Below, piece by piece: positions 5,540 through 62,501 of a DNA stretch of 64,000 nucleotides (positions are counted from its first letter, which is position 1; each line of letters starts with the position of its first letter). Below the pieces are notes generated by a model, which searched no databases, had not been told where the DNA came from, and worked only from the letters and a program-made list of their open reading frames with translations. This DNA comes from Styela clava (Eukaryota). The stretch spans positions 11,284,001 to 11,348,000 of the forward strand of contig NC_135256.1 in NCBI RefSeq assembly GCF_964204865.1. Direction: 5' to 3'. Position numbers and translations under genes: made by a program.

Positions 5540-5772
5540 GATTTCTAAAGAAATATAATTTATCTGTGATATAAAAGAACGTAAGCGAGACTACATGTCT
5601 GTAGCAATGGGTGTAATGAACATGGCACTTTCTCTAACCAACCACGAGAGTAAATTAGTATAAAATACTGTATAAACAAATATCAAAACTTTAACTAATA
5701 TATATTTCTATTCACGGTAAAAGGTTAATCGATACCAAATGTATAGTGATATATATTGTCTTACATCTAAGG

Positions 5773-10365: not shown

Positions 10366-27136
<16,771 letters not shown>

Positions 27137-32880: not shown

Positions 32881-33800
32881 GATTATAATTACTGAATTAC
32901 CTAGCCTATATAAAGATTTTCAGTATCTGATAAGTGTATAAATTGAGTTATGTCAGTATGTCGAGAAAGCTAAACTATTATAACCCATCATAAGCGCCTC
33001 CTATTACAGTATTACTGTATTAGGATAGGATTTACATATTCATCCTATGGAAACGGAAATTTGATAAGACAGTTTCATCATATAGTGAACCACGAACTCT
33101 CGTTTGGTTACCAGTCCATATCGGGTATGAAATAAATTGGCCAGTTATTTATTTCAGATGCATGAACCTTAATCAATTTTATTTCGGTCACTCTGAAAGA
33201 AACAAAACAACAACAAACGGATAAACAAAATGCAGAGGACCTGGAGGACGAGCATAACCTAATAAGAAAGTTAAAAAGGAACAAGTAGCCCATGGGCCCG
33301 TTCACCAAGAACAGTCAAAAGAACACAATAAAACAAAAGCCCAATGTAAAATCGGGCAATGTGAAATCGGGCAATACCTTTTAAATCAATGTTAAAATGT
33401 GAAATGTGTACGTGTATAACAACAGTGCTTTTCCTACAAGAATATGGAATAAAAAACACTCATTGACGTAAAATGGTGATTCTGTAGTTCAATTACATTG
33501 CAAAAACAACACGGTGACAAAAAATCATTACTAAAAAACAAGCTCGTTAAATAGATTGAATGTTTCATAACAGTCTATGGACAAATCACGGACTGGGGTA
33601 CCGCGTTCTTTTGTCATTTTCGATCAGTTCATTTTAAAATAACTGTATCCATTCCAATGATGATATTATAAGGATGGGTAGCGTTAACCGACCAGCATGC
33701 AATATTTTTGAATGTTACTACGTCCGTATGGTATGCAGGTAGGCCTATGTCCAGAACCACAAACAGACAAACAAATGTCTCTTGTGAAGTGAAGCTGGAT

Positions 33801-34180
33801 CTACAGGAGTGGTGACTCCTCCACGGCCCATGGGCCGGGGCCACGACCCATCTAATTGGGCCACATGGCCACGGCCCCATCAGGAAAAATTCAATTATCT
33901 TAACAAAATTTTCAATTTTTACCAAATTGTCAATATTCAAACCAAAAAAATATACTCCTGTAGTATGTGTACCAGGTTAGGGTTAGGACAAAAAAATTCA
34001 GATTTTTTACATTATAGTTCTATTACTGTATTACGAGTTCGGGGACTGTCTATGTTAGCCAAGTGAATAGTTTCTTTACACAACTTGATGGGCCGCGGCC
34101 CATAGCCTGATGGGCCGAGGCCCAATTCGATGGGCCGTGCCCCCGGCCTATGGGCCGCAGAGGAGTCACCACTCCCACTC
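33801..34180. mobile_element. GC-rich palindromic MITE containing a fragment of the Merlin-like family
   Basis: Inverted repeat GGAGTGGTGACTCCTC (33806) / GAGGAGTCACCACTCC (to 34175) with GGCCCAT/ATGGGCC subterminal repeats; flanking direct repeat AGCTGGAT. Confidence 0.7.
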
Positions 34181-35926
34181 AGCTGGATAACAAATTTATA
34201 TCAATGGGCCTAATATTGCTGTACTTTATTACAACGAGACATGCAAATCACTGGATACTTCAGTACCGTATTGTTTGGATCAGTACCCCGTTTTTAATGA
34301 AAATGAAATCTGAAAAATTCACCTTCAAAATTCGGCCATCTCCCATCTGACTGTTCTACCACACACATCGCGGTTCCTTTAATTACCGGAACGGACCCTA
34401 AATTACCGGAACAGGGTGGAAAGCATACATAAACCTACCGGAACGGACCTTTAGATGTCTCGCAAATGTCATTTCATATACTTCCATCCAAGTTTTATAT
34501 TAAATCGGCAGGAACCCCACACATCGCACAGTCTGACAGTCGCCGCCTCATGTCTGCCAACTTTAACTCTGATTTTTCTCGTGCTTGTATCATTTTTAAA
34601 TTTATTGATGCCCCTGACTGACTGAGGTAAACGAATTCAATACGGCCTTGTCTCTAACATCGATAGTTAAATTGAGTAATGCTCGATCATTTGACAGGGA
34701 ATGTGACGGTAAACTGTTTGCGTTGAGCGTAATATTAATAACATGAAAATGACTTACCAATTGCCTATATTTGATCGAAGAGTAACTAACCCACTAACCG
34801 TAAATAAAGAACGCAAGTATGAGTTTATGCTGATTAGATATTCGCCCTTTGCTGTGGCAATCATTCAAGTTCCGAGTCAATTTTTTTGTCAATATGATTG
34901 GTTAAAAAACAGCTGCGTAGGAAGAACCCTTTTACAACAAATATTATCCTCGGTTGGGTACATAACCGAACCTTATGAAGTTGTACTAGGTGTGATACCC
35001 AGAGAGGTATTATTTATTCATTTATTGATGAAATAATCCATCGTCGCCTACCACCAGCGGAAAGCAGTGGTCATGGCCGCGATTCCTTCACACTATCACA
35101 CACAACTTCACTGTAAAACGCCTCACATAATGATTATCTTTTTCAAGCTATATATCTCATCTGCTGCCTTCCCAGGTCAAATACAGCTGTATAGCATTTT
35201 AGAACGATCTTCCACAACAGTGTAACCAAAATTTTATATTCCAACTAAAACATATATCTTACCAATGTCAGGACCGCTATGAGTATACGGACCACTTGCA
35301 GAATAAATCGCAACTACATCAGATTCATATAATAAAACTGCACTATTCTCGAAGCAGAGGCTTCTCAACTTTTAAGGCCGACAATCATTGTGGACACTCA
35401 GCCCCGAGTGTAACTTACCAAGGGGAACATTTCAAGTATATGCACAGGTGCTGGGATTGATTATCACCCGATCAACGCTAACCACAAAAGACACTGAATA
35501 AGATAGACTTGATACCAAGTGATTCAAATTTATTTTACAAAAGCCAGAAGGAATGCACAAAACAGTCAGCGCAGTCGCAATACAATTTAAATGTAAGGTA
35601 GATAACCAAGAAAATCAGTTTAAAAGAAAACCGCTCAAACGATCACAACTAAGATACTCAGGAACACCCCAAAACACATATTATAGCATTTACGTTGGCA
35701 CACATCAGAGTTGGTGTCACGACTTCTCACTAGTAATAAAACAAACAAAAAGCAATTTACAAGGGAGAAAAATTAGTGGGGTTTGTTACAGATAAACCAG
35801 ACTCTGCTACAGTGTATCATTAATACCAGGCAGTGCACACGTATCTGAAGACTGGAGAATCTCGCATGTTCAGCTAAGAATGACTCAATGTATATTTTCG
35901 ACCAGAGACTTGATGAAACATAATGC

Positions 35927-38900
35927 CTAGTCAGAGTCATTAAAAGTAGTCTTCTTTCCACCTCCACCTCCTCCATAACTGCCACGACCACCCCCTCTTC
36001 CACGTCCACCACCTCTTCCTCCGAAACCCCCACCACCTCGTCCTCCGTAACCCCCGCCACCTCGTCCTCTGAAACCCCCACCACCTCGTCCACCTCTGAA
36101 GCCGCCTCCACCTCGTCCACCTCTGAAACCGCCTCCTCGACCTGGAAAGTAAAATTGAAAGGTGAATGCAATCGCAATCACAAAACGGAATTTACTGGTG
36201 TTCAGAAATAGAATTATAATTGAAAATTAACAATATACCAATCACGAGTTGTGAATTCAGCAACAAATGGTTCTTATTTTCAGTTTATTCTTAAAGAGAT
36301 ATCATTCAGCATGAGGGATGACTCACAGTAAAAGGTAAAATGAATCATTGTTGCCATATCAGACTCCTTAATTAGTTGAAGGAGCAAAATATCTTACCAC
36401 CGCCGCCGCCGCTTTCTCGTCTCTTAGTAGCATAGTCAACATAAAAAGTAGTTGAACCGTCTTCTGCTTCTATTCCACCTTTAGCTGATGTGTAGCATTT
36501 TGTCGCATCACTTTCTGATTCGAATTCGATATAGGCAAAACTGGACAAAAAAGTAGCGAATTAGTCAAGAATTTGAGCGAGTGTGCCTATAAGTGAAAGC
36601 TCAAAAGAAGTTGAAAAATACTAACTGTTTATTTTTTCCGGTTTCTCTGTCAGTTATCATTCTGACTTCGGAAGCCCCTTCAAAATGTTTTGAAAGATCC
36701 GCTTGAGACATATCTTCAGTTACGCCTTTAACAAAGAGAGTTGACGACGTTTGTTCTGAAACAAGAAGTTATTATATGTAATACCTCATACAATTGTTTA
36801 TTTGAATAGAGTCAGATAAAAAAAACTTACGATCTCCATATCCCCCGCCTCTTCCTCCGCCACCATAACCTCCGCCGCCACGACCTCCTCTACCTCCACC
36901 TCCTCCTCTCGCCGGTTTTGAGCTTCTGCTATCTGTGTAATCAACATGGAGTTGTCTTCCTTCCAGTTCATATTCATCTTTATTTTTCATAGCATTTTCC
37001 AAAGATTCTGGATCATTGAATTGAACGAACGCAATTCTGCGGAATACAAACAATTTGGTTGTTTGAAAGTAGTTCACGAAAACTATGTCTCAAAAAGCAT
37101 TATCGTCAATATGTACCCTTTGAAATGGCCAGTCGCACGATCTTTTAATAATCGTACTTCTTCGACATTGTTGAAAACGCCATACAAGTCATCTTCTGAT
37201 GCAGAATACGGCAAGTTACGGACAAACATTGTTCTTGAATCTCTATCTGAAGTGTTTCCTCCATCTCCTATCAAACAAATATTTCAGATTTTTAATTGTA
37301 GTTCAGTATAAATTACCCAAATGTTTTAAAACTTGAAAAAAAACATAGAATTTCATAATGAGCAGTAGCAAAATACAAAAGGTATATCTGTTCCACAATT
37401 AACAACCGACTTACGAGCTTGATCATTTCTTGGTTTTGCTTCTTCGACCGCTAATTCACTACCTTTCCATTCAACTTGATTCAACACGAGCGCTTTTCCT
37501 TTATCGTCCACATTTATGTCTACAAAAGCTTTGCTGTGAAATAAAATAATAATGACTTGAAAATAAGTGAATCAACCAAGAAATATCACAATAATTTGCG
37601 TCATAATACAAAACGCATAAATGCTCACCATCGCCCATAGTTAGCTCTGCAGGCCCGACACTGTATTCCTTTACTTTTTAAAAATTTATTAAAAGTGTTG
37701 TCATCAGTTCCTTCTGGAAGTCCAGAGAACATAATCGTCACCAATTCGCCTGAAATTGCAATATGAAAAAAATTCTGTTAAATAGTTTTTCTAATGAAGT
37801 TACAGTTTATTGCATTGTATATCATTGGAAACAATACTAAGGAAATTTAGTGAATCGTTATTACACGCATTTTATAAACAGTATCGGACTATATTAAGCA
37901 ACATTAGCTTTACTTCAAATATTTTTGTATCGACATCACCCACCCAATTTTTCAGATTTAATCTGGCATTAAGCCTCATAACTTGTTGCCACAACTTTTT
38001 TTCAATAGTGGTCATTTCACCCATGATCGTTTGCCGAAAACTAGATATCGATAAAATTTCTCAAACCTTGTGGCGCATCATCTTTCATCTTCTTCGCCTT
38101 CGTATGTTCTTCAGTAGCTTGTTTTCGTTTTCTGTTATTATTTTTTTCATCTTCCTACAGCCAAATTAATAATAAAATTATGCTGCGTGTTTGCTCTGAC
38201 ATGGTAATTTACAATAACGCAAAGATGGGAAATAAATAAAATATATGACTGTGCAAATAATAAAAAAAGACATTCAATGTTTAGTAAAATGATTCAGTAC
38301 CTGCTCTTCTTCCTCCCCAGAATCACTCTCATCCTCGTCATCATCATCATCATCGTCGTCATCATCTACTTCCATTTTCTGAGCTTTCTTGGTCTAAAAT
38401 CATGATAGCATAAAATGGTTGCCTTATGGTAATGACTCAAATGTAATGTTACACTGACTGTGAAATAACTTTCAAACCCTATACCACTATTATTCGCAGC
38501 TGCTGGTGCTGGTCTCGCTGGAGTAGTCGAAATTTGGAATTTTCAGGAGTCAGAATTTCATACTTTTCGTGGTAATTAATTGAAGTCAAATTTGAATGGA
38601 AACTTTGAAATTGAATTGATTAAGCGTTAACATTAAAGTAGGCTTGCATGAGTCAAAGTATTTATTATTAAAACTAGATTTCTTCAATAATTCAGAGCTA
38701 GAGCCATTCCCATCAACCTGGAGTCAATGTCAAATATTTTTTTCGAATTCAAGTTTAGAGTTTATTGTGGAATATCCCCAATGTTCTGAGTACACAAAAA
38801 TTTTACATCTGTAAAACATTGTGATGGTATGGTAACCTAAATCTCCTCGCAGCATTTTAAATCCATACTAAGATACAAATTTGAGTAAGAGAATTGAGTT

Positions 38901-41600
38901 TCCAACCTTAGAGTCTTCCTCATCATCGTCGTCGTCATCATCATCATCGTCATCGCTGTCTTCTTCTTCCTCTTTCTTTGCATCTCCAGCAGCTTTCTTA
39001 TCTTTCTTCGTCTGTTGATGAAAATCAAAGCGTCATGACGAACTCGAAAAAAAAACTTCGAATTTCTAGCCTTGAAATTTTTCGGAAACCATCTTATGAT
39101 GGAAATTTTGTGGTCAAAAATTGATTTCAAGTTGACAACTCAAGTTTTAAATATATATATATATATATAGGCATATATATGTTTCAACATATAAAGAATA
39201 ATGAGGTTGAAGTATATGGAACCAGTTTGGATTCAATTAATATAACGATAGATTGCAATGGCACTAGACCAAGCCCTAGTTACATGAATTCACGAGGAAA
39301 TCCGAAAAATATATGTTTTATGTAAGTTTTTCATTCATTACCTCTTCCTCACTGTCATCATCATCATCGTCGTCATCATCATCACTGTCTTCCTCTTCGT
39401 CATCAGCTTTTGCTGCATTTTTTACTTTGCCGTTTGTTCCTTTCTGCATTGAAAAAAATTTTGGTTATCATGGCACCTAAATAAGTATTTAAAAGGTACT
39501 TGAGCAGTTACTTTGACTGTTTTTATTCTCATTTGATAATTTGGTTTTCTACAACAATGAACATTCACAAGATATCACTTTACAGAGCATAAGTATTTGA
39601 ACCTGCCAAACTAGATTCCAATATTTGCAAAATATTTTGGTACTCCTACAGTATGCGTACAAAGATGGCGGACACGGGAACGTAGTATGTATACCAGATT
39701 AGGGTTATGCCATAATTTCAGGTACAAATGCTACGGGAGTCACTTGGCTGTCCCTGAACTCGTAATAAAACTAAAATAAGGAAAATTGAAATAAAATTAT
39801 GGCCTAACCCGAACCTGGTACACATACTACATTCCGGTGTCCGCCATCTTGGTTCGCATACTACAGAAGCACCAATATTGTTGTGTAGGCAAGGGCATTA
39901 TATGTGTCAAAACATTATCTACATTACCATAGCTATAGTATTTATATGTATACTGTATTATTTATCACACATTTTCGTCCTGTCATACAACATAACAATC
40001 TTATTTTTGCTGGCGAATTTATTACCTTGACTTCCTCCTCCTCATCACTATCGTCATCATCATCATCGTCGTCGTCATCACTGTCTTCTTCCTCTTGTTT
40101 CTTTGCCGCTTTTGTTGTTTTCTTCTTTTGTGTTTTTTGCACCTGAAATTTGATATGGTTGAATTGTTATGCCAGCTGAAATGAAACACCCTTACATCAC
40201 AGATTTAGTAAGGCTTGGACAATAACACTAATGAAAATAAAAAATGGAAGATAGGTTTTTCATATCTGTTTCACACCTGCATCCTGAATAAGACTCACCA
40301 GCAGTCAATAAGCATTTGGAATATTGGCACTCCAGAAGTGTGTGTACCAATGTGGAGGTAAATAATTTTGTTCGCCTACTTTAAATCAAGTTGTGTAAAG
40401 GGACTGAAACCTATGGGCAGGGGTTATATTCACTTGGCTAACACGGACAGTCCCCGAACACGTAATATAACAAAAATAAGAAAAATCGGAATTAAATTAT
40501 GGCCTAACCCTAACCTGATACACTTACTACGGGAGAACCAGAATATCATGTGTTGAAAAAACAGGAATTTTCCCAAGTATAATATTACATCCAGATGTTG
40601 AATACTTTTAGTAGCAAAGCAGTGGTACGCAAAACAAGGCTTATAAGCAAGGTATAGCCAGTGGGCTTAATAATCTCAGTAAAAAACAAGGAGTCGCTAT
40701 TAAAAATGCTCAATAGGCAAGTCAGGGATTGGGAGGTGATTCGAAATCACAGAGGCTTTGGAGGTGGTTCGAAATCACAGGGGCTTCAGCTTCGGCCCAA
40801 TGCCCATTGACGCTTTTAGGTGTTACCACTACCATTAAACATCAGCCCAAATGCAGTGGGACTTAAAAATATTACATAAGGATTTCAAAATTAAACTTTT
40901 AAATATATAAAATTGAACATAAAATTTAGTTTATATGTATGAAGTATTGGAAAACTACTCAGATGGTGAGGAAGTGGAGTCACTAAAATTTCTGGTAGCT
41001 ACGGCACCATCTGATATGATGAGCTTGGCTCAAACTCCACCAAAATGCCACAGCTCCATGCTTCCATTCTCGACTCCAGCCCTGAGGCAAGTAATCAAAA
41101 TACGAGTAATACTGGACAAAACTGAATCTGTCATATTTCTGAAAATCTATACCTTGACTTCTTCCTCTTCCTCCTCACTTTCCTCCTCTTCACTACTTTC
41201 TTCTTTCGGTGGTGGATCAGGTTTTACCTGTTTCTTTGCTTTTGCATTTTTTGTTTTCTTGTCTTTTCCCTATTAAATGATTTTGATAATAAAAATTAAA
41301 GTTAAACAAAAATTGAGGATTCTATATGATACATATATATGACAAATAATAACAATGTTATACTAAGACAAATAAATACGACAAGTATTTTTAATGAGCT
41401 TTCAAAACTTGTTTGTGATTAGATCTTTAGGAATAGCAAGCCATGAATCTGAATCATCAGTTTTACCCAACAAATACTTTTAAACAAACTGAACAAGATT
41501 TATATAAAATTGATAGAATTATAATTCCAAAATCCTAAGAAAAATAGAATACAATACTTAGACAATGAAGAATACTCACTTTGGATTTCATCTGGACCAT
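35927..41600 (-). CDS. NCL: Nucleolin (acidic N-terminal repeats, three RRMs, C-terminal RGG/GAR domain), multi-exon
   Basis: First coding exon MVQMKSK|gtgag (ATG 41600); several Lys-rich/poly-Asp-Glu exons; RRMs with MFVRNLPYS...KGIAFVQF and LFVKGV...FAYIEF; RGG tail ending GKKTTFNDSD*. Confidence 0.92.
39639..39873. mobile_element. Merlin-like MITE (long-TIR subfamily) in a nucleolin intron
   Basis: GGTACTCCTACAGTATGCGTAC...AAGATGGCGGACAC / GTGTCCGCCATCTT...GCATACTACAGAAGCACC; TSD AATATTTT/AATATTGT. Confidence 0.75.
40326..40539. mobile_element. Merlin-like MITE
   Basis: Homologous to the 16011/20416/24689 copies; degenerate TSD GGAATATT/AGAATATC. Confidence 0.75.
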
Positions 41601-42403
41601 TGTGATTTACAAATTCTGATGTTAAGTAATATAGGTGCTTTTGTACCTTTTAGTTATTGGACTGTTAGTTAAGTTTTCTAAAATTCAGAATCATAAGATC
41701 AGGTAAATAAAATTCTCAAGGCCTTTATTCTCGGAAGGACAAGTTTAATTGATTGGAATGAGTCATCCAACTTAAAAATTATAACATATTTAAACTCTTA
41801 AGTGGGGTTGAACGGAAAAACATCAGTACATCATCTGTTGAAGGGAAAGACATCATAAACTCAATAAATATTGGCGCATCTGGCCATAATACACAACAGA
41901 TTAATACATCTAATACAATCAGATAAATTTATTATTATTAATAAATTCCTAGATTGCAAGTCCTAGGCAATGTCTCTAATACAACAGTTAAACAAAAGCA
42001 TAGGATATTGAATTAGATGAAAAACGTGTTTATTATAAATGATCATTCGTTTTTAAGAACAGATAATAAGGACAGAAATATGAAATTCATATGTATATAT
42101 TGTTATTAAAAGTCAAAATTTTACGACATTTTACAATCATTGTACTTTTCGTTTTCACTTTTGAAAACTAATTGCTGAAAATCATTTCGCAGTGAAGAAT
42201 AGAAACTCAAATAAAAGGATTGACAAAAAGCACTTTTCTCCGCTTCTGAAATTCCTGTATATAAATGCAGATAAATATGTGGAAAAAAATTGATATCTGG
42301 CTCAAAATTGTGGAAAACATCCATTCAATCCTGAAATTGTTTGGATGAATTGCCAAAATTTAAAACAAACAACAATTCGTTATCAATGGCCGATGAAGGC
42401 AGA

Positions 42404-42509
42404 TTTACTGAAGATGCCCAAAAATTACTCCAGAGCGTAACTTACGTTGATGGGACTTTACTGAAGATGCCCAAAAATTACCCCAGGGCGTAACTTACGT
42501 TGATGGGAC
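42404..42509. repeat. 53-bp direct tandem duplication upstream of the nucleolin start
   Basis: TTTACTGAAGATGCCCAAAAATTAC...CGTAACTTACGTTGATGGGAC x2 with 2 substitutions. Confidence 0.9.
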
Positions 42510-45500
42510 CAACATCAAATAATTGGAAAAATAAAAACGAAAATTCAAGTAATCTACGTCAACGGACAAAATAAGCAAATGCTGTGGAATTATGTGATAG
42601 CCTATATTAGATTCTGAGATTCATGCCAACTGTACTACAGTCTACAACCACTCAATGCCTGTCAGCCGGAGGCAAATCATGATTTTTAATCCATATTTAA
42701 CCTTTTATTTTTTTCTGACATGTTACATGTCTTTTAATTTTTCTTAATACATAAAACAATCAAAAAAACGCTTTCTCAAACACTCATGCGATTATTCAAG
42801 AAACCACAAATGACAGAAGTAGAAAACAACAGATACGCCTAATTATCAACAATATACAATGAAAACTAGGGCACTGTAGTTGTCATATAAATACAACAGA
42901 CTGACAGAGAAACGACCGCGCAATGGCCGACATCGAGCTTACCGTAATTATTTATTTATTTTCTGAGGTAGGTTACGGTAGCATTCCTCATCAATTTTGT
43001 TAACGTCGCATAACCGTTGCTACTTCTATATCAATCATAGCCTAAGTAAAAAACATTATTATACCATTATCCGCAGTCGTCCCAAATTCCTTCAAGTGCG
43101 TTCTGACAAACACGCATGCAGTTACGAAACAGCCGATCGAAAAAATTCCGAAAGCCACGGCGCTCCCACGTGCTTGACTTGCAGCATGAGACCCGCAGGC
43201 AGTGCTGCGGAGACACTAAATTGCAGAAAAAGAGACCGTATATTACTAAATTAAATATACGTGTTCATGGTCGTTATCGAAAAAGGCGCAGCTCAGCAAT
43301 ATTAGTCATGGTAGGCAATAAAAATATTCTTGTTGTGACTTATCAAATGAATGTATAGCATTAATTACAATTAATTAAGCAATAATAAATAGGTTGAGTT
43401 TAGACCAGTTTTCGAAATTGAGTGGGACTTAAATCAAGGTCTCCCGGATCCTCGAGTGATAAATTTATTGATTCGTCAACTAAAAACAATCATGAATGGA
43501 AGTAAAAATTGGTATTGATTTTGCATATGCCAAATATTCGGTAACAATGTTAGCGGAAAACAACGAATCAAACAAAACCACGCGTTCACTGGACCGAATC
43601 CGGACCTTTCGAGTATTTGATTCGGACCGCCCCTAATTATTTATTCTGGATCATTAGCCCCACTTTTCAAGTTTCTTTTTATAAATTGACTTTTATAGTT
43701 TTGAATATATATTATATGTAAAGAACTATAACACCATAATAAACAATCTTGATGAGATAATAATCATTAGCCGGTCGAGGAAGTGTGCGAATAAGGATGC
43801 CGAAATATAATTTTTGGAAAGACCGGACCCAAATAATTTTCAAGTATTGTATGCAGATCTTCGATGAAATAGTTGAGTAGCCCTGCGCTACACTATACAG
43901 TACTAGGGTTGCCAATTGCCCTATTTTTCCCTGGCATGTCCGGGATTTTAGTGGTCAAATTTGCGTCAGGGAGAAATGTTAAAAAGTGCTCAAATATCAG
44001 GGATTTTCGAATACAGTGAATCCTGCTACAAATACTCGAGCATTCAGATATTGCGCATCCACGAAATCCTATTTTTCAGAGATATGTCACATGCTAGCAT
44101 TTTTGTGCAACACAGATTGCGTACCTCAATGATTGTACTACCATTATCTGTACAGCACTTTATTCCGTGTTAGGGTTTAGTCACTAGTGCTAAAGATTAA
44201 GCAACAATTTTGTTCTGTATTTATTCTTTTCTCGCGAGAAAGCGACGATAGGTTGTGCCTTTGGATACAGCGTGAATTTGTACCGTAATACCATGTTATG
44301 TGGTATGGTATGTTAGTCGTTGCGTAATACTGTACAGCAGCGTTTCCCAACCTGTGTTCCGCGAGCGTCTTCGAAGTGTTCCGTGGAAAAGGAATCTTAA
44401 TTTAATTACGATGACGATCTAAGAATCGTGAAATTGTCGCCCAACTGACCGTTCTATATCGCGTCATTGTCGGCCTAAAGTAGACTAACTGTAGACAAAT
44501 ACTAATACGGACTAACTAGGGCGAAGTAGTGGCATTTTCGTTAACCGTCGGCCTGGGTTGTTGACTGTTAAGTTCATTAGAGAGAGAGAGAGATTTATTT
44601 TTTCGTCAACCAAAAATAACAGTCATCGTAATAATAATAAAAAAAAAAAATAACAATAAGAAATAAATTAGTTTGGTATAGACAGGAGGGAGTGATACGA
44701 CCGGATGGTCATCAAAGTCAACTCCCCCCCTTCAAGCTATTATGTTTAAGATCCACAGTTTCAGATGACTAAAATATTGGGGAGGAACATTCTAGAATTT
44801 TAAATTATATTCTCAAAATAGAAGAAAAAAATTGGGGAGGGGAATGCTAGAGTAAATCATTTTTATTTATTTATGTGGAGCGGGATTTCAAAATCTGAAG
44901 AGATTCCAAAGGTTACTGAAAGAATTTAAATAATTTATACGCATATGTGATGAATTAGCAGAAATGCTTCATTTCATGGCATAGGTACGCATTGAAGATG
45001 TAACAAACATGATCTGCTTTGATTTGTCTAGATTAGGAGGGGGAAAAATAGTTAATAGGACCTAACAAGCATTATTTCAGCATAATGATCAACAATTTTT
45101 TGCTTGCAGAGGGATGTCAAAGTAGTATATAAAAAGACAAGTGAAAGATAAACAAAAATGTAAATAATTATAATAGTATGAGTTGATGTAACAGCAAATC
45201 AAATGTTTTTGATTTTTCTATAGGCAAACAAGTAGGTTTAAAGAATAAAGGCAAAGGGCCAACTGTTCTTCCTCCATCTCTGCCTGGTTTTACTTTGAAA
45301 TGCTGAAAAAATTATTTATTTTCGGTAAACTCTGTTCAGAAAACAAGAGAGCTATGCTCAAATATATGGACACGTAGCGCCACCCAATGGCAATGATTTT
45401 GGTGACGTCATAGCGAAAAAAAAAGTAATAGCCTTCTGGAGAAAAATTTTATCTTTAACCACTGAAAATTTCAAAGCAATTGGTCCAGTATTCGAAGAGA

Positions 45501-46388
45501 AAAGCGATTTTTTAATGATAATGACGAAAGAAAACAAGAGAGCTATGCTCAAATATATGGACACGTAGAGTCACATTAATTTGATGACGTCATAGCGAAA
45601 AAAAAAGTAATAGCCTTCTGGAGAAAATTTTTATCTTTAACCACTAAAAATTTCAAAGCAATTGGTCCAGTATTCGAAGAGAAAAGCGACTTTTTAAAAA
45701 CGTGTCAAGCGGTACTGAGTTAGCAGTCAGGCAGCATCTTACCTGTACACTGTAGGCCATATACGGTAATTGATCACAGAACAGAGTTCCCTCGCAAATT
45801 TTATGTTGTTTACACTTTAGGACAGATAATTGATCACAGAACAATTCTTCCCTTTCAAATTTTATGTTGTTTCCAGTAGACTCTCATCAAAATAAACAAA
45901 TATAGTAGGCTACAAGTGCTACAACGCTTGCATTACTGCACTGGTAGGACCGTGAAAGATTAAGTTACGGTAATTTCATTGTGGTAAGACACCGGTACCG
46001 GCACCAGTACCAGTATCGTACTTACGTACTGAGCTACCAGTACCGGTTAGCAGTCAGCCAGCATCTTACCTGTACACTGTAGGCCATATACGGTAATTGA
46101 TCACAGAACAGTTGTTCCCTTGCAAATTTTATGTTGTTTACACTTTAGGACAGATAATTGATCACAGAACAATTCTTCCCTTTCAAATTTTATGTTGTTT
46201 CCAGTAGACTCTCATCAAAATAAACAAATATAGTAGGCTACAAGTGCTACAACGCTTGCATTACTGCACTGGTAGGACCGTGAAAGAATAAGTTACGGTA
46301 ATTTCCTTGTGGTAAGACACCGGTACCGGCACCAGTACCAGTATCGTACTTACGTACTGAGCTACCAGTACCGGTACCGAACCTGTAG

Positions 46389-46924
46389 TAAAGGGAGAAA
46401 GAGATGAGATGCTGATGATGAGATATTGACTATCACCCTATATATTTAAGTTCTATTCCCGCGTTATTGTTTTGACACGCGTTATGGAATGTGACTCCAA
46501 TCTGGACTCCTTCAGACGATAATAAGCACACAGTGTTGATGCTAATCGTTGTTGTATATTATAGGAAGATGCACAATCCAAATTCCGAAAACAGATAAAA
46601 TTGAGACACACTCAACTCTTAACACAGTAAATCAGGAGTGAATCAAAACACATCACACTTAACGCAGTAAAACAGAAGTGGATCAAAACACATCACACCT
46701 AACGCAGTAAAAACAGAAGTGGATCCAAACACAATATTATGCAGCCCTCTCGGCAAGCCGGAACGATACGTCATCAAATTGGTCGATACGAGAAAGGCAG
46801 TACATGTAATCAGTAATCAGTGTTGCTACAATAAAATGACCTATTGTGGGAAATGGAACACACTATTAAAATGAAAGGGTTAAATACATTATAATTCATA
46901 GTTACACAATGCACATTCGCTACA
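46389..46924 (-). repeat. 3' LTR
   Basis: Direct repeat of 48950-49485; starts TGTAG on the minus strand; contains ~39-bp internal tandem repeats. Confidence 0.95.
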
Positions 46925-46936
46925 CAATTCCCCCTC
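46925..46936 (-). promoter_or_regulatory. Polypurine tract
   Basis: GAGGGGGAA(TTG) immediately 5' of the 3' LTR on the minus strand. Confidence 0.8.
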
Positions 46937-47781
46937 GACAGTAAAAAAATTAACTTGATAATTTTTTAAATTTTGGAGTCCGGCGGCCGAGAGATGAAGT
47001 GAAAGAAAACATAATAACACGAATTAATAAAAGATATTGGTACGATATGATGAGTGATGGTTAAGGTATACAAGAGAATATACGCCATTTACGAGAGAAA
47101 ACAAAATACGAGAAAAAAAAATTCAAAGGGTCTCTCTCTATGTTGCTTAGAAATGCTTAACATTTTAAAATGGAATTGTAACGAAATAGTAAACAAAATG
47201 GCGACAATACTTGAAAGAGGTACCTAAAAGAATGTGAAACACTTTGATGCTTAAAGGAAGGGCCCGAGAAGAAACAAATGGCGGATTTAGTACTTGAGAA
47301 TTACATCGAAATTGGTTTGGTGTTTAAGATTGTAAAATTGGCGTTAGAGGTTATTTGAAACAAAATAATAAGTAAGAAAAAATCCTGTAAATTGAATAAT
47401 GAGTAATTTGACAGATTATTGAACCATTGAATCCCTAAAATTGAACCTGAATCAAATTCTGTATGAAGTAAAAGAACTCATGATATCTAAAAAACAAGAC
47501 ATTGATTAATAACAAGTAATTACAGAATAGAAAACTGACACTACACAATTATTTTATTTGTATGTTTTTTTTCTGTTATATTTAAATTCTTATACTAAGG
47601 TGTTTTGATGTGGATAATAATAAGAGAAAAGTAATAAAATACAAAACGATTAAAGTGGAAAAAAACAAGATGATTAATAACGAGGCGACACATTGCGAGA
47701 TACACACCATATACAACTCGCAACGACCGCCGGAATCGAGTTGACTTAATGGGGTGGGGATAAATTAAAAGGTTGTTACAG

Positions 47782-48686
47782 TCAAACTTTCGACTCCATT
47801 TGAGCTTGGGTGCTCGCACTTGAGAAGTTGCTAGCATTTTCCATCGATTCATCGTCAATTTCGACATCGGATAACTGGTGTATTTCTTGTTGTTCGTTGA
47901 ATTGTACTACGGTTTGTCGTGGTATGCTGAGAAGTCGTTGTATTGGTTGCAGCAATCCATTTGTTAATGTACGGCGAACGGACATTCGGCAGTTTGGCAA
48001 GCTTCGATAGATGAAATAACCTATGTAAAGCAGGGGTACAACGAATAAAGCGTAAATGAGGCCGAATAGCGGCCACGCCTTTATGACGTAATCTGACAAT
48101 GTCTTGGCAGTTGTCATTTACGTTTAAAACAAAGCCATTGTATGCACAATAGACTTCGTTTGATTCAATGCAAGATTTCGTTAGTTGAGAAAAAGTTTCG
48201 AAGGTTTGCAATGATCGGTATTTCCAATCGGTAAGATTGCCCGATGCATTGTAATATAACAAGAATTCGGTAGTGCTGAATTTAGGAAAGTTGCGAGCTC
48301 TACAAGCTTTCGTATCTTCAACATTCCAAACAAATGTAAACACACCTTTCCGGCAAAAACCAGAATTGGGTGCGCATTGGCTGAGGTATTTGAACGTGTT
48401 TTTGGTTGCGCTTGACGAAGAACAGCCATTAAATGGTTCGCCAGTAGGTCGTTGTACGTTTACAAATCTTGGTATCAACATTTGTAAGAAGGGCAGATGT
48501 CTCGTAGATGTTTGCTGAACAATTCTTCATTGTATGAAGTTTGTGTCGGTTACAAATAGCTAGTTTGCGTATGTCGTAAGTCTGTCCATGTAACGATTTG
48601 TGACATAATTTCAGTGGTCCCTCAACGGCTTGCGTTCTTATACAAAGCATGACAAAGCAAAGTAATGTGTAGTGAAATATGGTCAT
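47782..48686 (-). pseudogene. Frameshifted env-like type I membrane glycoprotein (signal peptide, Cys-rich ectodomain, TM, acidic tail)
   Basis: Three overlapping minus-strand frames: 48429-48686 (MTIFHYTLLCFVMLC signal; NCS sequon), 47855-48481 (SQCAPNSGFCRKGVFTFVW; NAS and NLT sequons), 47782-48117 (WPLFGLIYALFVVPLLYIGYFIY TM). Located between the pol tail and the 3' LTR, the usual env position. Confidence 0.75.
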
Positions 48687-48829
48687 CAGATATCCATCTG
48701 AAATTCGCTTGATAGAATAAAGTCTTTGCTTAAATGGCGTGGGAGTTTTCTCAGCCTTCGCGGCCGATTTGACATTTGCGGAGACGGTCCCAGACGATGC
48801 GCTGAATTTGGAAAGGCTGCTGTCTTCAT
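48686..48829 (-). pseudogene. Remnant C-terminal tail of Gypsy-like pol/integrase
   Basis: 47-aa frame containing SNRPRRLRKLPRHLSKDFIL, similar to the RPxRxRxxPxxLxDY tail of Gypsy integrases; its stop overlaps the env ATG (TGATG). Confidence 0.5.
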
Positions 48830-48929
48830 TGTTGAATTACTGAATTGCCATCATGAAGTTGATTTTCCAGTGGTTGAATTGATTTTTCTAATTTGTTAAA
48901 TAGAATTTCCCAGCGGTTGCGTGTCTTTA

Positions 48930-48946
48930 CACGTCGGAGGTCATCA
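48930..48946 (-). promoter_or_regulatory. Primer binding site, tRNA-Trp-like
   Basis: TGATGACCTCCGACGTG, 3 nt after the 5' LTR; close to TGGTGACCCCGACGTG, the complement of the tRNA-Trp 3' end (one mismatch, one extra base). Confidence 0.75.
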
Positions 48947-48949
48947 AAA

Positions 48950-49485
48950 TATAGGGAGAAAGAGATGAGATGCTGATGATGAGATATTGACTATCACCCT
49001 ATATATTTAAGTTCTATTCCCGCGTTATTGTTTTGACACGCGTTATGGAATGTGACTCCAATCTGGACTCCTTCAGACGATAATAAGCACACAGTGTTGA
49101 TGCTAATCGTTGTTGTATATTATAGGAAGATGCACAATCCAAATTCCGAAAACAGATAAAATTGAGACACACTTAACTCTTAACACAGTAAATCAGGAGT
49201 GAATCAAAACACATCACACTTAACGCAGTAAAACAGAAGTGGATCAAAACACATCACACCTAACGCAGTAAAAACAGAAGTGGATCCAAACACAATATTA
49301 TGCAGCCCTCTCGGCAAGCCGGAACGATACGTCATCAAATTGGTCGATACGAGAAAGGCAGTACATGTAATCAGTAATCAGTGTTGCTACAATAAAATGA
49401 CCTATTGTGGGAAATGGAACACACTATTAAAATGAAAGGGTTAAATACATTATAATTCATAGTTACACAATGCACATTCGCTACA
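48950..49485 (-). repeat. 5' LTR
   Basis: Matches 46389-46924; I see only two substitutions by eye. Confidence 0.95.
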
Positions 49486-51397
49486 GTAGGTCTGATATTC
49501 CGTTCCGCATACGATAGGCTATAAAACTTGCATTGCAGCATTAGTAATACCGCGGAAGGAATAAGTCAATTTCACTGCGTTACGGCACCGGTATGGCAAC
49601 TTACCAGTACCGACCTACAGTAGCTGAAGTACTGAGCAAGACAATCGATCGCGAAACCGCTTGAAATAAGTGTAAAACAGTGTTCCCATGAGTAAATTTA
49701 AATACCGCGAAATTTTGTATGAAATATCATATCTCATAGGATTCATATAAAATTTAAGAATAAACAAAAGTAATAGCCTTCTAGCGAAAAAATTAATCTT
49801 TAACCACTGAGAATTTCAAAGCAATTGGTCCAGTATTCGAAGAGAAAAGCGACTTTTTAAAAACGTGTCAAAGAACAAGAACAAGAACAAGAACAACAAC
49901 AACAACAACAACAACAACATAATATTGAAACGATCGTTATGTCCACTACGTGTCCAATAACAATAACAACAAAATTTTGAAACGATCGTTATGGCCACTA
50001 AACGTGTCCAATAAATAAACGGCAGGTCTGGAGCTCGCGAAATTGCGGCAAGAACTTTTATTTCCATTAGACGTAACATTAGAGGCAAACATTACGTAAT
50101 GGGAAGTAAACGCCATAGAATGGTAAAATGAATGAATTGATTCATATACACAGCATTTAAATTAAGAAACAATAAAACAGGTATAATAAATGCAATATGT
50201 AAAATATTCAATCATATTTTAGGTATGTTTAACACAATTCTGTAAGTTTTCGCGGCGCATTCAGCAACTCCGCTACATTGGGAACCGCTACATTACATTG
50301 GTTTTCTTTATCAATTTATTGTTCCACTTTTTGGTGTTCCGCGAGGCGAGATCAAAAGTGTAAGTGTTCCATGGCCGAAAAAGTTTGGGAAACGCTGCTG
50401 TACAGTATAGGTGTTTTGGTTGCAAAATTGGTCAATGTGACTCATTAAAATTTTGTCTTTCTAGATATGGTAACAACAACAGCAACAGCAGTAACGGGAA
50501 CATGCTAATTGGTAATTTTCGTTCATTATGCTGGCTGAACGCCAAAGCGGGACTTTTTGCTGACCAGTCGGGACGCCGGGACAAGATGTTAAAAAGTGGG
50601 ACTGCCCCGCCCAAAATGGAACGTATGGTGAGCCAGCCCACGCGTGATAGATGTAGACCTATCCTGTATACTATGATGTAAATTGACATGCTTGTCCATC
50701 CAATTAATTCAAACAATAATCTATTGCACGTATATATGTCTATTTGCCTCAAAAATGTGACAGTATCTGCATAATAACTAAACACTATGAGAGAGTAGGC
50801 ATACCTGTTCAAGCCCTTGTTGGCAGTTACGCATTTCTGCGACATGCGCCCTTCACATGTGTAACTGCCTCAAGACCGCTGCGTTATAACAGGACAAACA
50901 AAAAAGAAAATATACAAATATCGTATGTTATTCAATTCGTTTATTACTCCAGACCGCTGTGGTCCATATGAAACATAAGGCGCACTATCGATAGTTTTGA
51001 GTGTAGGCAATATCGTATATATAGTAGGCCTACTACCTGATCAGTGGCGGCGCGTGGTTATTTTGACAACCGGGGCAAGCTACTGCGGGACCAAGTCACC
51101 CCCATCTACGGGGACAGGATGAGCGCTGTAAGTTCTCCCATCATTTTATGAGTATAAAAACCATTCCATCGGTAACAACCAATCGGCAAAAGCGACAATT
51201 TTTAACGATAAGAAAGTGTCTTTAAAACCGGTCCAAGTCAAGGGATTAATAAATATAGACATAGTTTATTTTGAAACCTCTTTCAAAAGGAAAGGCAATA
51301 TTTACCCAAATAAATACAATGACATATTAACAGAAACTTCGGGAAAGCAGACAAAACCTAAAATAAGATATATATAGATATATATGCTGCTAGACTT

Positions 51398-55778: not shown

Positions 55779-56663
55779 TCAAGCAGGTTGAACAGGCATG
55801 GTCAAAGTCAATATCTTTGTATTAACATTGAATTGTGAACCACATTCCTCTTGTATTAATTTATATGGGAGATACACGTCCAATTCATACAAATGTGGTT
55901 TTACTGACATCACTAGTCTGTCTTCCCCAACATCAACAGAAATTGCTTTCGCTCGACTCGCTTTTGGTAGTTCGATCTCAGCTATAAGATACTGTGGATG
56001 ACCTTCCTCTGGTTCTCGTAGGATTCTCAATTTAGGCTTCTCTGCAACTGGAGTTGGAACTGCAGATGAAGAGCCATGTACTTCTTGGATGAGGCGTTTT
56101 TTACGCATATATTGTTCTTGCAAGCTTCCGACAACTTTTTTTCGTTTCAGTAAAATCCATTTTCGATCGAGTTCTACCTCGTATTTATTGAAAATGCCCT
56201 CGATTACAACGCTCATGAAGAAACCAAGGAATATTTCATTATCCCTGATCTTTTGCAAATAAGCAGGATTAATTATAATATCATAAGCTGTGCATCCAGT
56301 ATTTTTCTTATCCAGTTCTGCATGTGGTTCACCAATACTCATTGGAACCCTGTAGTCAACTACTGCATTTTCATCATCAAGCAGATAAATAAGCTCTTTT
56401 AATCTTGACTCTGTTATATCTGAAGGAGCTGGAACATTACTAGATGTACAAACATTGATAAATACTTTTGTAGATGTTTTCATATCTTTGGTTTTAATAC
56501 AACAACCAGGAGTGGGCGTTACTTTTTCTTGAAGACTTTGAAGTTCTTCTAGCTGCTGCTTGTGTTCGGGTGTCGCTTGTTGCAAAAACTGTTGGTACAT
56601 GTCTGCCAGTTCCTCATCACTGGGTGCTGGTTCTTGATCAACAAGAGGCTCATTCAAATTCAT
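55779..56663 (-). CDS. PIH1D1: PIH1 domain-containing protein 1 (R2TP complex), single coding exon
   Basis: 294 aa; PTPGCCIKT...KVFINVC, YRVPMSIGEPHAELDK, and a C-terminal CS domain (LTLTMPV). Confidence 0.92.
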   Translation of the reverse strand: MNLNEPLVDQEPAPSDEELADMYQQFLQQATPEHKQQLEELQSLQEKVTPTPGCCIKTKDMKTSTKVFINVCTSSNVPAPSDITESRLKELIYLLDDENAVVDYRVPMSIGEPHAELDKKNTGCTAYDIIINPAYLQKIRDNEIFLGFFMSVVIEGIFNKYEVELDRKWILLKRKKVVGSLQEQYMRKKRLIQEVHGSSSAVPTPVAEKPKLRILREPEEGHPQYLIAEIELPKASRAKAISVDVGEDRLVMSVKPHLYELDVYLPYKLIQEECGSQFNVNTKILTLTMPVQPA

Positions 56664-58025
56664 AATGACAAATGAATTTATACAAATTCTACTAAACTAA
56701 ACATGGAAAAATAACAGATGAACAAATGAGATGAAATCAACTATCATATATATAGATTTATTGTTATGATCGAGAAATATTGTTAGTGCAAGACATGTAG
56801 CTGCGCTATGCTGATAAACAAACTGCCAAATGCCAACTAATTTTATTGATGGTGGATTGCTTATTGAGTTTGTGTTTACCGAATCGAAAAAGACTGCAAT
56901 AATTAAGCGAAAAAATCAATAAATATATAGCAAATTGCATCCTTTTTATCAATAAGCTCAAATCTATTGTCTAACTACAAACTTTATCTACTAAATTAGC
57001 ATAGGTAATTTGGGGGAAATTACCTAATTCGAGTGATACAGGAGCAGTTGCAGGATGATGAAACATCCAAATAAATGACGGAAGCTCGGTTTAAGTCGAT
57101 CGCGATAAATCCATTTGTATATCCAATAAAGATGCTCGTCCCGTTATTTGATGTAAACTAAAACCTTCACAATGGAAACAGAAGGAGAGTCCTAGTCACT
57201 TGAGGCTCTTGAGCATATATCATATACATATTTTTGTTGAGGGTATATACATTTTATTGCACTATTAAATACCAATACAATATGACTTTACACTTCAGGT
57301 ACAATGATACAAGGTACAATATAGACTATACTTTGGCCAGAAAAATGTAGAGAATCATATAACTGCACAGAGCAATGTGCATCCTCAAATAATAGCAGGA
57401 ATGAAATACAAAAAATGGGCATTTTAAAGTGAGATAATCAACATTATGAGACAGCCGTACCTCAGTTGGTGAGACAGCCAAAGTATAAGCAAGCCAATTT
57501 ATTTTAAGGATGAAAAACACCAATGTTTATGTCATGCAGATATGTGATATAGCTGCTTGTTATTACTGGCTCACATTATCTTTACAGATTGATTTTATGT
57601 TTTCATATTCTGCAGATTTATAATTGATGGTCCTGTTGAGATGTACCAGAGCAGCACACCAAATATGATTGAATAGAAAATATAGCAATCTGTAAGAAAT
57701 CAAAACTTCCAACTGCTATAATAAATCAACAGTATGAGCATAAAAAACCAGAAAAATTTGGAAGTCAATTAAAGATCTTAATTTTCTTAACTTCAACCAA
57801 TATTTTTTAATTTAATCACCTAAGACAAACTGATAAAAGTGAAAATTTTTATCAGAATTCGAACAAAATGCATGTAGCCTAAAGAGGTTAACATAATTAT
57901 AAGCAGTAGAAGAGACATGCCCCAAGAACATGTCATGATATAATACGAATGGCAATGATTACACAAAATGCCAGGTGATGAGACACGATTATAGAATTCC
58001 AACAAGTTCTGATTTATAAATGAAT

Positions 58026-58454
58026 TTATTCCAAGCTTTGCAACATCAATAACTGCTTCAAGACTTTTGTTTGGCTCGTCTCCCGTATCTCCCCAGCAAG
58101 AAACATTTCATCGACCACAGTGTAAACTTTGTAGAAGTTGAACACCAAATCAAGCTCACAAACGTTGTGGAAGTATTCATTCAGAACTTCAACAAAATTG
58201 TGTATAGCTTCAAGATATGCAAGGTTGTTGTCATGCACGTCCACACAAATGCAAAAGTAGAGCCCTGCATATCGCCTGTACACAATTTTGAAATTCCGAA
58301 ACTCGACAAAGTTTGTGTGCTTCGCATCGCGAACTGTCACCACAGCATGAACTTCTTCAATCAGTTTTTGTTTTTCATCATCATCAAAATGCATGTACCA
58401 TTTCGCCAGCCTTGTTTTCCCTGCTCTATTCTGTATCAATATGAACCTGATCAT
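58026..58454 (-). CDS. AP2S1: AP-2 complex subunit sigma, intronless CDS
   Basis: 142 aa [20 protein letters not shown]...[11 protein letters not shown], nearly the canonical sigma-2 sequence. Confidence 0.98.
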
Positions 58455-60478
58455 TTTGCGATAGAAAATACTTTGAAGAATCTACAACAGCTGAACAAGT
58501 ACCGGTAACGGTTTAACAGAAGCAATCTTTCGACGAACCACCAACAGCAGAAAAGACAAAACGGTTTTAGTCTAGCTTCCAAATAACGATCGAAACGCTT
58601 TTTCGACGAATATGGCCACAAGGGGGTAGCGAGAGTAAAAATATATTTATGGCGCTGCACCATTTTGTAAGTTACAGCCGTGTCCAACCACATTAGTGTT
58701 TATTTACGTTCCGACCCAAATTTCATTTAGGGCCGCAAATTATATTTCAAATATGATGCAAGTTGCACAATAATGCATGGTTTTAGGTGTGATAGGATGC
58801 AGACAACATAGAAGTTTAATTTTACCGATTCTACAGATAGTGCGAGACCTTTTTTGAATGTCATTTCTCTTCTTTTTAATATCGATTTATCACGTAATTG
58901 GTCTGTCATTTTTGAGAAGAAAAATTTCAACAAATACATTGAAAATGACCTAGAAAAGCATCATGCTGTTTCTTCAAGCCGCTTTTCAGTGACAATAACT
59001 TCGCTTTTAGCTCACAGGCACTCTTTTTAGTAATTTCATTGCACCTTATCTGGAAATGTCTTTTCAATAATAAAACTCGAAGCTCCGATTGCTTGGTTTT
59101 GACGTAATATTGCGTCACATCGATACGATATCCAATAATATTATCTGAGAAAGGCTCGGATTTTCCCTGTTTGTAACCAAACCTCTCCACATGCGTGCTG
59201 GGGGCCAACTCCTCAATTTTCTCCTCCACTCACACCACACATCGCAAACTTGAAAGCGATTATTCCACCACGAACACCTGGAAAATTATCGTGCGAGTAT
59301 GGAGAGAAATTGAACGGTTAAAGAATAAATACAAATGGTTTTGAAAGTATTGGCCCTGGGTAGTTAATTCCAAGAAACGCTGGTGGCAGGGTCAGATGAG
59401 TCTACATCAACAAACCTTGTTTGTTTAACTTGATTTCATGCGTTAGTGCAACGTTTTTGGCGATAATCAACTTTAATGTCGGCCTTCATCTTGTGTCTTA
59501 GAATTTGACAAAGAACATAGTTTTTGGTTGGGTTAAAATGCATCAATCAAAGCACTCCGATACATTTTGATATTAAAAGTGGGGAATCAATATACATACA
59601 TGCATATCCAAGTATTAATTTTACAGGTCATTTCATAAAAAATGATCAAATTCCTTCCAGCAACATAGGTTCACTCAGTTCAAACATTCAATTGGCGCGT
59701 GACTTGCTCTGCTTTGTTTGATCAATGTCATTGGTTTGATCAATTATAATTATAAATACATTCGCTGCATCATAGCTTCCATACTCTCATGATGTCGGGG
59801 ACAATAGGCCTAAATCAATATATAATCCTCTTCCTTTATTTTCCTAGCATTGGGGCGTAAAAATCAACTATGTCATTCTAGCTAACCCTGAACGCTGCAG
59901 TTAATAATCTTAATTCCGAAATTCAACTTATATTTTTAGTCCAGATCCTGAAGTTTATACTGGGGCAATATTCTTCATAAATAATCTCTAATAATTGGGT
60001 TTTTATATTATGTGATTCATAAATTTCCAGAGATTCTCTGGTTGTCTTGGCGGTCATGAAGATTCTTCTGGGAGTGGCACTGTTTGGTAACTTAATGACA
60101 AGGAAATCTCGCCTACACACGTCGGTAGACCAGTTTTCGCCTTCGGCGTCAAACTTAACAGTGTTCAGTGAACCTAACAGAAATAACAGTGTAACACGGC
60201 TTGTGCGATGTGCCAAATATAGATTTTGTCTGAGGCGGAAGAGAACTATGAAAATGCAGGCGCAACATGAAATTAAACACGAAATACCTTTGGAAACACT
60301 TGTGCTATAGAAATAGATTGTGTCATAGAAAATATACTGACGTCACCATTTACAACTGTGATTTGTTCAAATGACACAATTTGGCCTTTTACGCACTAAT
60401 TGCTAATTTGCTTAATGCAATATCGGGGTACAATTAGACAGGAGGTTGGAGACGAGGTAGGATGAAGCAATGAGCATA

Positions 60479-61653: not shown

Positions 61654-62501
61654 AATTTGGTTTTTGTTATTTTGTATTTAAAGCAATATTCTTATACTAC
61701 AAATGTTAAAGTATTTGATTATTACCAAGAAAATCTTCTAATTGTGCCAAATGATTCTGTTAAAAGTTTATGGTCAAATCATTTGAAATTCGTGGAAACA
61801 AAAAATTATAATCAAAAAAAGAAATTGCAATGATAACATTACAAGGCTACGATTTAAATTGTACTACAGCGCTTCAATTCCATTGATCCGTTTTATTTCT
61901 GTTATATTATGTACCATTTGACTTCATTACTTGTGCAATATATATTTATAAATATGTCTTGAAATTGTAATTTCTAACCATAAATACTCGAATTTCTGTT
62001 GTATATGGACACCGTATGATATATGTTCAGGCTAATGTAACTCTCTCTTTTGTCCACACAGTTTTCAGGAATTTTTAGCATGATTTTGTCAAAAAATGAG
62101 TAGGTGGCTTTATTCTTGTGGAATTTGTATAGTTACTTAATCAGATATAACAATATTGACACTAATTAGTTTTGAAAACTTTAGCTTGCAATATATTGGT
62201 CCATAGACTATGTGAAATCATTGTTTTATATGTATGTGCGGAGGGGAGTTCATGAAATAAATTTTGAAAATCATCCTATGGCCTTTGTTAATGCATAAGA
62301 ATCTACTCCTTGATAGTAGGCTATGTGTTTTTTTTCCAAGTGTTTGGTTTTTAAGAACATTTGTTAATCAAGATTGTTTGGTCATTATTTTATCTTATAT
62401 TCTGTCATCACCGATTGATTTTTCATCTGTTGGCTGCCGTTTTTTTTTAATGATTCTACTTATATAAAATCAGTCAAAATTAGCTTTAGAAATAGTAAAA
62501 A

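Follow-up and report, generated by a model that had tools for sequence, protein, structure and literature searches.

The window analysed here, a 64-kb stretch of Styela clava DNA, was found to carry a 3,097-bp LTR element on the minus strand, which is best read (with a probability of about 0.7) as a non-autonomous element derived from a Ty3/gypsy family of ascidians with a herpes-gB-type env, copied in trans from a parent that was already defective. That the insertion is recent is supported by its nearly identical LTRs and perfect target-site duplication. An initial annotation of the same DNA had likewise proposed a recently mobilised, non-autonomous element, and the young LTRs, the duplication and the lack of enzymes agree with this, trans copying being the likeliest route.

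The two LTRs are direct repeats which are identical at 534 of 536 positions with no indels, in agreement with the roughly two differences first reported, and they enclose an interior of 2,025 bp (Table 1). GTAG is present on both sides of the element, as had been described, the chance of such a 4-base match being 0.0056. Together with the nine-purine tract before the 3' LTR, which was also recovered, the two direct LTRs and a duplication within the 4–6 bp class give the element the structure of an LTR retrotransposon. An opposite, plus-strand orientation was ruled out, since the minus strand carries the primer site, the pol tail and env alike. The termini of both LTRs are TG...TA rather than TG...CA; TGTA is reported as a rare LTR-terminus motif in plants in the available part of bioRxiv 10.1101/137141. 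The tRNA-Trp-like primer site, which starts 3 nt past the 5' LTR, was correctly recognised as Trp-like, but it departs from the tRNA-Trp 12-mer given for a Clavelina element by one additional base and by one mismatch within the triplet that pairs with CCA, and this imperfection should lower priming efficiency. None of the seven AATAAA-type hexamers tested was found on the sense LTR. Given the imperfect primer site, the TG...TA termini and the lack of such a hexamer, the cis-signals cannot be called fully intact, although they had been described as intact. One AATAAA-type hexamer occurs on the opposite strand of the LTR near 46830, and the LTR also contains a CCAAT box and a CRE-like site in addition to its tandem repeat. 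No tRNA genes were detected in the 64-kb window by a tRNA scan, and an Rfam scan of the window was likewise empty. Folding of the 5' leader was no better than that of shuffled sequences (z 0.92), which leaves a packaging structure without support.

Table 1. Features of the LTR element and its flanks (positions in the 64-kb window).
Feature	Position	Strand	Basis or remark
Target-site duplication, left copy GTAG	46385..46388	+	direct reading
3' LTR, 536 bp, TG...TA, 40-bp x2.9 tandem repeat at 46618-46733	46389..46924	-	repeat comparison
Polypurine tract, 9 purines, T-run before, 3 nt before 3' LTR	46928..46936	-	function inferred from position
AT-rich 3' non-coding region, no recognisable ORF	46937..47781	-	31% GC over 46925-47781
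Env remnant, C-terminal piece, stop 47784-47782, third reading frame	47782..48100	-	
Env remnant, middle piece, gB-type domain I-II cysteine motif 48385-48302	48101..48415	-	
Env remnant, N-terminal piece, ATG 48686, C-x18-C motif 48521-48462	48416..48686	-	
Pol (integrase) C-terminal tail, stop overlapping env ATG	48686..48814	-	match to S. clava XP_077976161.1
5' leader, possibly first gag codons	48815..48929	-	
Primer-binding site, tRNA-Trp-like, imperfect	48930..48946	-	
5' LTR, 536 bp	48950..49485	-	repeat comparison
Target-site duplication, right copy GTAG	49486..49489	+	direct reading
Complete element	46389..49485	-	

The interior had been described as having no gag, protease, reverse transcriptase or RNase H, and no such motif could be credited in any of the six frames; neither reverse transcriptase nor CCHC/CHCC nucleocapsid nor integrase HHCC motifs were found in the element. 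Single occurrences of the short peptides DSGS and GPF in its 3' non-coding part were taken as chance. With a longest open sense frame of 223 codons, the element has no coding capacity for its own transposition and is in this sense non-autonomous, and it falls outside the errantivirus definition given in the available part of PMC13524379 (uninterrupted gag, pol and env ORFs). Visual inspection also raised the idea of a chromodomain remnant upstream of the pol tail, and this idea was abandoned.

The short pol-tail-like frame noticed at the outset, whose stop codon (48688-48686) overlaps the env ATG, proved to match the C-terminus of an S. clava integrase. The frame (ending at 48689) matched one protein among three candidates, XP_077976161.1 (E 7e-12), with 38 of the last 47 residues of that protein identical, a 5-codon gap and the same end residue, while the rest of the element gave no further match to it. 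XP_077976161.1 corresponds to the C-terminal half of a retroelement integrase with a GPF motif, and it clusters with a second protein, XP_077971796.1 (285 of 289 residues identical). Both relatives, available here as proteins from 289-aa partial gene models, showed weak rve_3 similarity (E 6e-5, below the cut-off) and foamy-virus integrase matches (E 0.003–0.007). Their loci, LOC144432026 and LOC144425897 respectively, lie on two contigs (31.3 and 32.7 Mb) other than the 24.3-Mb contig that carries the genes of the window and are "uncharacterized" in RefSeq; judged by these matches, they are retrotransposon integrase fragments and not host genes. The match of the pol tail and the near identity of the two relatives thus indicate that young relatives retaining more of pol are present in S. 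clava. The tail match to the C-terminal half of an integrase also places a gypsy-type integrase at the C-terminal end of pol, by which a Ty3/gypsy origin of the element is supported.

Direct searches with the env pieces did not identify a homologue in Pfam, PHROGs, solved-structure sequences, a word-indexed protein search, the ESM Atlas or a full HMMER scan. None of seven pieces had a useful Pfam match, PHROGs returned weak matches of unknown function, the solved-structure sequences gave no match, the word-indexed search gave 0 of 30 and 0 of 3 candidates, and nothing above 0.80 was obtained from the ESM Atlas. Two proteins from the full HMMER scan were rejected as sums of 4–8-bit matches over tandem repeats. 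A single-sequence AlphaFold model of the middle piece had a mean pLDDT of 35.6 and was unusable for fold comparison. The assignment of env therefore rests on motif tests against the supplement of PMC13524379, a work available in part, which describes nine ascidian errantiviruses, all with a herpes-gB-type env, and gives their domain I-II sequences.

Two spacing patterns taken from the nine ascidian C3 rows were each found to match once in the six frames of the window, both within the element and in the right order (the two cysteine motifs of Table 1). Shuffled interiors matched in 20 and 0 of 5,000 cases, respectively, rates which are optimistic since the patterns, while restricted to the residue classes of those rows, were written after viewing the window. 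The strict form of motif A was used, an earlier form having been widened to fit the window. Motif D is weak by itself (1,110 of 5,000 shuffles, four matches in the window) and counts through its position only. By eye, the cysteine and aromatic register of domain I-II is shared by the window and the C3 rows. A hydrophobic signal-like stretch follows the env ATG, and a transmembrane segment at ~48066-48010 (Kyte-Doolittle 19-mer 2.16) is followed by an acidic cytoplasmic tail. These features suggest that the env-like gene belongs to the ascidian herpes-gB-type (C3) errantivirus envelopes.

The gene had been presented as a viral-type glycoprotein cargo. Its type is that of a viral fusogen (gB), but it is not open, and what is present is a broken remnant of 905 nt with env-like pieces spread over three frames. 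Translation from the ATG gives only 85 residues before it meets an in-frame stop (48431-48429) in the first fusion-loop region. The anchor cysteines of the two env motifs are 88 nt apart and in different frames, compared with ~106 codons (by eye) in the Clavelina row, and ~76 codons of the domain I-II of the family are missing just downstream of the N-terminal piece. A weak conserved motif in another frame (48233-48219) suggests two further frame changes, giving at least two and probably four in all. Just ~40 nt separate the last domain-II cysteine from the start of the transmembrane piece; domains III-V of the five-domain ectodomain are thus absent, after about 48109. These breaks are observed, and with the loss of function that they would entail the env remnant is a passenger, not working cargo.

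The extent of this damage can be set against the age of the insertion. An LTR divergence of 0.37% corresponds to ~1.7 substitutions expected in the 905-nt remnant since insertion (95% range 0.2–6.1). Using the local indel to substitution ratio of 33:455, obtained from 21 repeat pairs in the window (overlapping BLAST pairs with the LTR pair left out, in which large gaps are under-counted), 0.12–0.44 indels would be expected in the remnant over the same time. The probability of at least two indels is then 0.007 to 0.07 and that of at least four 1e-5 to 1e-3; the LTR pair alone limits the indel rate weakly, to up to 2.5 events in 905 nt. The interior lesions comprise the stop, the frame changes and three large gaps. 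As these are too many for the age of the LTRs, the likeliest history is trans copying of a template that was defective beforehand, and most of the lesions should pre-date the present insertion.

Under this preferred reading, a parent copy which had already lost gag-pol and whose env was already ruined would have been transcribed from its own 5' LTR. From the established biology of LTR retrotransposons, its RNA would have been packaged, primed by tRNA-Trp, reverse transcribed and integrated by the Gag-Pol of a related element, and this retrocopying would have given both LTRs the same sequence again and produced the 4-bp duplication, two marks which are observed. The loss of gag-pol itself may have occurred by a template switch or DNA deletion or, with somewhat lower odds, by reverse transcription of a spliced env mRNA. 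Deleted macaque proviruses are thought to have spread by co-packaging (PMC11379458), and plant non-autonomous LTR families with coding remnants are known (PMC13570524), according to the available parts of both papers. No direct precedent for the element was found in those parts of PMC5443660 and PMC8220671 that were available. Points against trans copying are that neither a second copy nor a solo LTR occurs within the 64-kb window, and that the relatives are only partial gene models, with no intact helper seen. An autonomous helper in this genome had been predicted; pol-bearing relatives do exist in the species, whereas supplementary file 6 of PMC13524379, in the part available, lists three pol and ten env matches for S. 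clava assembly GCF_013122585.1 with the entry "yes - No intact copies". A gag-pol helper without env, or one in another assembly, would be compatible with that survey, the count of which took gag-pol-env copies.

It is unlikely that a full-length gag-pol-env element inserted at this site, then lost ~5–6 kb and decayed in place. Such a history would need at least three separate large deletions in addition to the stop and the small frame changes, within an interval that left the 1,072 bp of LTR with just two substitutions and free of indels. It would be easier to accept in that the element is single-copy in the window, that large deletions are single events which need not track the substitution clock, and that the site is repeat-dense and prone to rearrangement. 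Rather improbable, too, is an old element, long decayed, that was made to look young by recent gene conversion between its LTRs. The interior is indeed far more damaged than the LTRs and the primer site is altered, but the identity extends over the entire 536 bp, the target-site duplication is perfect, and beyond the junction the pol tail shows, relative to the young relatives, only one in-frame gap and 2 differing residues among 39, which argues that the interior is not deeply old.

A satellite keeping a working envelope, with which it would complement an infectious helper, is very improbable and already largely refuted for the present copy. In its favour, the element retains its 3' arrangement together with the signal-like and the transmembrane segment, and in other ascidians gB-type elements occur intact and in several copies. 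Against it stand the 85-residue reading and the loss of ~76 codons of domains I-II and of the whole of domains III-V, as does the lack of intact S. clava copies in the list of PMC13524379, the source of both survey statements in its available part. The possibly infectious system proposed initially thus finds no backing in either the broken env or that survey. Assembly or sequencing errors in a repeat are an equally implausible source of the env breaks. Repeats are generally hard to polish, but six host ORFs of 151–728 codons are unbroken in the window, two of the four host proteins compared match database entries exactly, the LTRs agree at every homopolymer, and gaps of several hundred bases are unlike polishing errors.

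Returning to the trans-copied origin, the gag-pol gap has a defined edge: similarity to XP_077976161.1 ends at 48817-48807, ~120 nt after the primer site. This clean join of leader to pol tail may be the splice junction of an env mRNA, and a deletion by template switch fits as well. In the env mRNA of Oikopleura Tor3a, a donor near the gag start is joined to an acceptor upstream of env (PMC4402516, available part). Across the pol tail, the env frame runs for 39 codons without a stop (P 0.096 under uniform codon usage and 0.023 under that of the host; the splice-frame test was post hoc). A pair of leader ATGs (48854/48851) is in the env frame with one intervening stop at 48839, and a further leader ATG (48829) is in the pol-tail frame. 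AG-compatible boundaries are common (149 of 855 in the protein of the relative), so that an acceptor at the break is possible but not forced. If the join is a splice junction, the overlap of pol stop and env start would be incidental.

By tentative extension, the element might found or join a parasite family descended from spliced env transcripts in an ascidian gB-type errantivirus. The RNA of such a family would keep the primer site, the purine tract and both LTR halves, be copied by a helper and shrink with each round, possibly acting as a defective-interfering RNA or a source of small RNAs against a helper that is losing its own env in Styela. A bolder and less likely addition is that the 85-residue fragment is secreted and interferes with entry. 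If the spliced-env origin were true, the element would be a fossil cDNA that records, as the first such case, where env is spliced in a gB-type errantivirus. The gap, if a splice junction, would also show how such elements express env. A search for "splic" in the available part of PMC13524379 gave no matches, and no report of this Styela element or of an LTR-flanked spliced-env copy in ascidians was found in the literature searched, most of it non-subscription.

With the ascidian HSV/gB-type C3 errantiviruses (e.g., Tunicata_Ascidiacea_Clep_errantivirus_1; PMC13524379, available part), the element shares the host class, the pol-then-env order, the domain I-II cysteine/aromatic spacing and the signal and transmembrane layout. 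The primer of Clep_1 is Trp_CCA, like the Trp-type site here, and the LTR length falls within the range of the C3 family. In contrast, the interior measures 2.0 kb compared with 7.0–7.9 kb in those six of the nine C3 rows that give LTR coordinates, gag and the enzymes are missing, env is broken, and Styela is listed without an intact copy. The S. clava loci LOC144432026 and LOC144425897 have the same integrase tail but keep at least 289 residues of integrase. Members of the TRIM/LARD/TR-GAG continuum (PMC13570524) and SERV-K/MER11 (PMC11379458) are likewise described, in the parts available, as helper-dependent, with young LTRs and target-site duplications around a non-coding or fragmentary interior; those are multi-copy with shared breakpoints, whereas one copy was seen here in 64 kb and the remnant is of env, not gag.

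A tRNA-Trp primer and a 4-bp target-site duplication are common to the element, with its imperfect primer site, and to the CsRn1 clade (CsRn1, PwRn1, Boudicca; PMC2582038), neither feature being unique to that clade. Some members have an env-like third ORF, and one described copy of PwRn1 has LTRs that are 99.7% identical around an interior that is corrupted (PMC2582038). The clade is defined by a CHCC Gag and reverse transcriptase phylogeny, and the element has neither Gag nor reverse transcriptase. Since the tunicate gB-type elements lie near chromoviruses in the reverse transcriptase tree of PMC13524379 (available part), against these CsRn1-like traits, the clade of the element is unsettled. 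Oikopleura Tor3a is also a tunicate gypsy-like element, with a donor and acceptor anatomy of its env mRNA like the join seen here, and no retro-copied spliced form is described in the available part of PMC4402516. Appendicularian elements have an F-type env in six of six rows in the available part of PMC13524379, in contrast to the gB type of the present element.

The host had been taken for an invertebrate, probably a chordate. The pol tail matches proteins of Styela clava, and a neighbouring single-exon gene shares 364 of 366 residues with XP_039249915.1 of this species, which makes the host this ascidian or a close relative of it. Intergenic DNA rich in repeats surrounds the element, which stands at one end of two tandem copies of a 328-bp unit (45719-46375, 49486-49640; 98% identical), and a second repeat (45338-45708) recurs at 49762-49871, which suggests nested insertions. 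A spliced gene on the minus strand (~35770-42950) with acidic exons and RGG repeats is nucleolin-like by eye; on that strand, its 5' end comes ~3.3 kb past the 3' LTR of the element, and LTR read-through could affect it. Single-exon host ORFs were found at 1052-5590, 31780-32919, 55779-56696, 58026-58481 and 62499-63407, the types recognised being two leucine-rich-repeat, NFKBIL1-like, PIH1-domain, AP-2 sigma and OTU1-like, and an ArfGAP exon at 21281-21673. A dispersed repeat family of ~225 bp (80–90% identical, with a TAACCC-like core) has copies at 16011-16229, 20417-20636, 24688-24913, 33953-34069, 39634-39878 and 40325-40539, one of which is palindromic and MITE-like. Three similar short motifs occur at 47195-47345 in the 3' non-coding region of the element, one being an exact match to the pattern tested; they resemble a YY1 site. 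LTR elements account for 10.76% in the S. clava transposon breakdown of PMC7540406 (available part).

Neither the parent family nor a non-autonomous way of life is new, and the element descends from an errantivirus-like parent. It shows neither a working envelope nor an infectious agent, and it is probably a fairly ordinary genomic parasite rather than the sign of an infectious virus. The two young pol-bearing loci are places in which to seek the helper. With this element, Styela joins the ascidians with recent activity of gB-envelope gypsy elements, despite a survey without an intact copy in this species (PMC13524379, available part).
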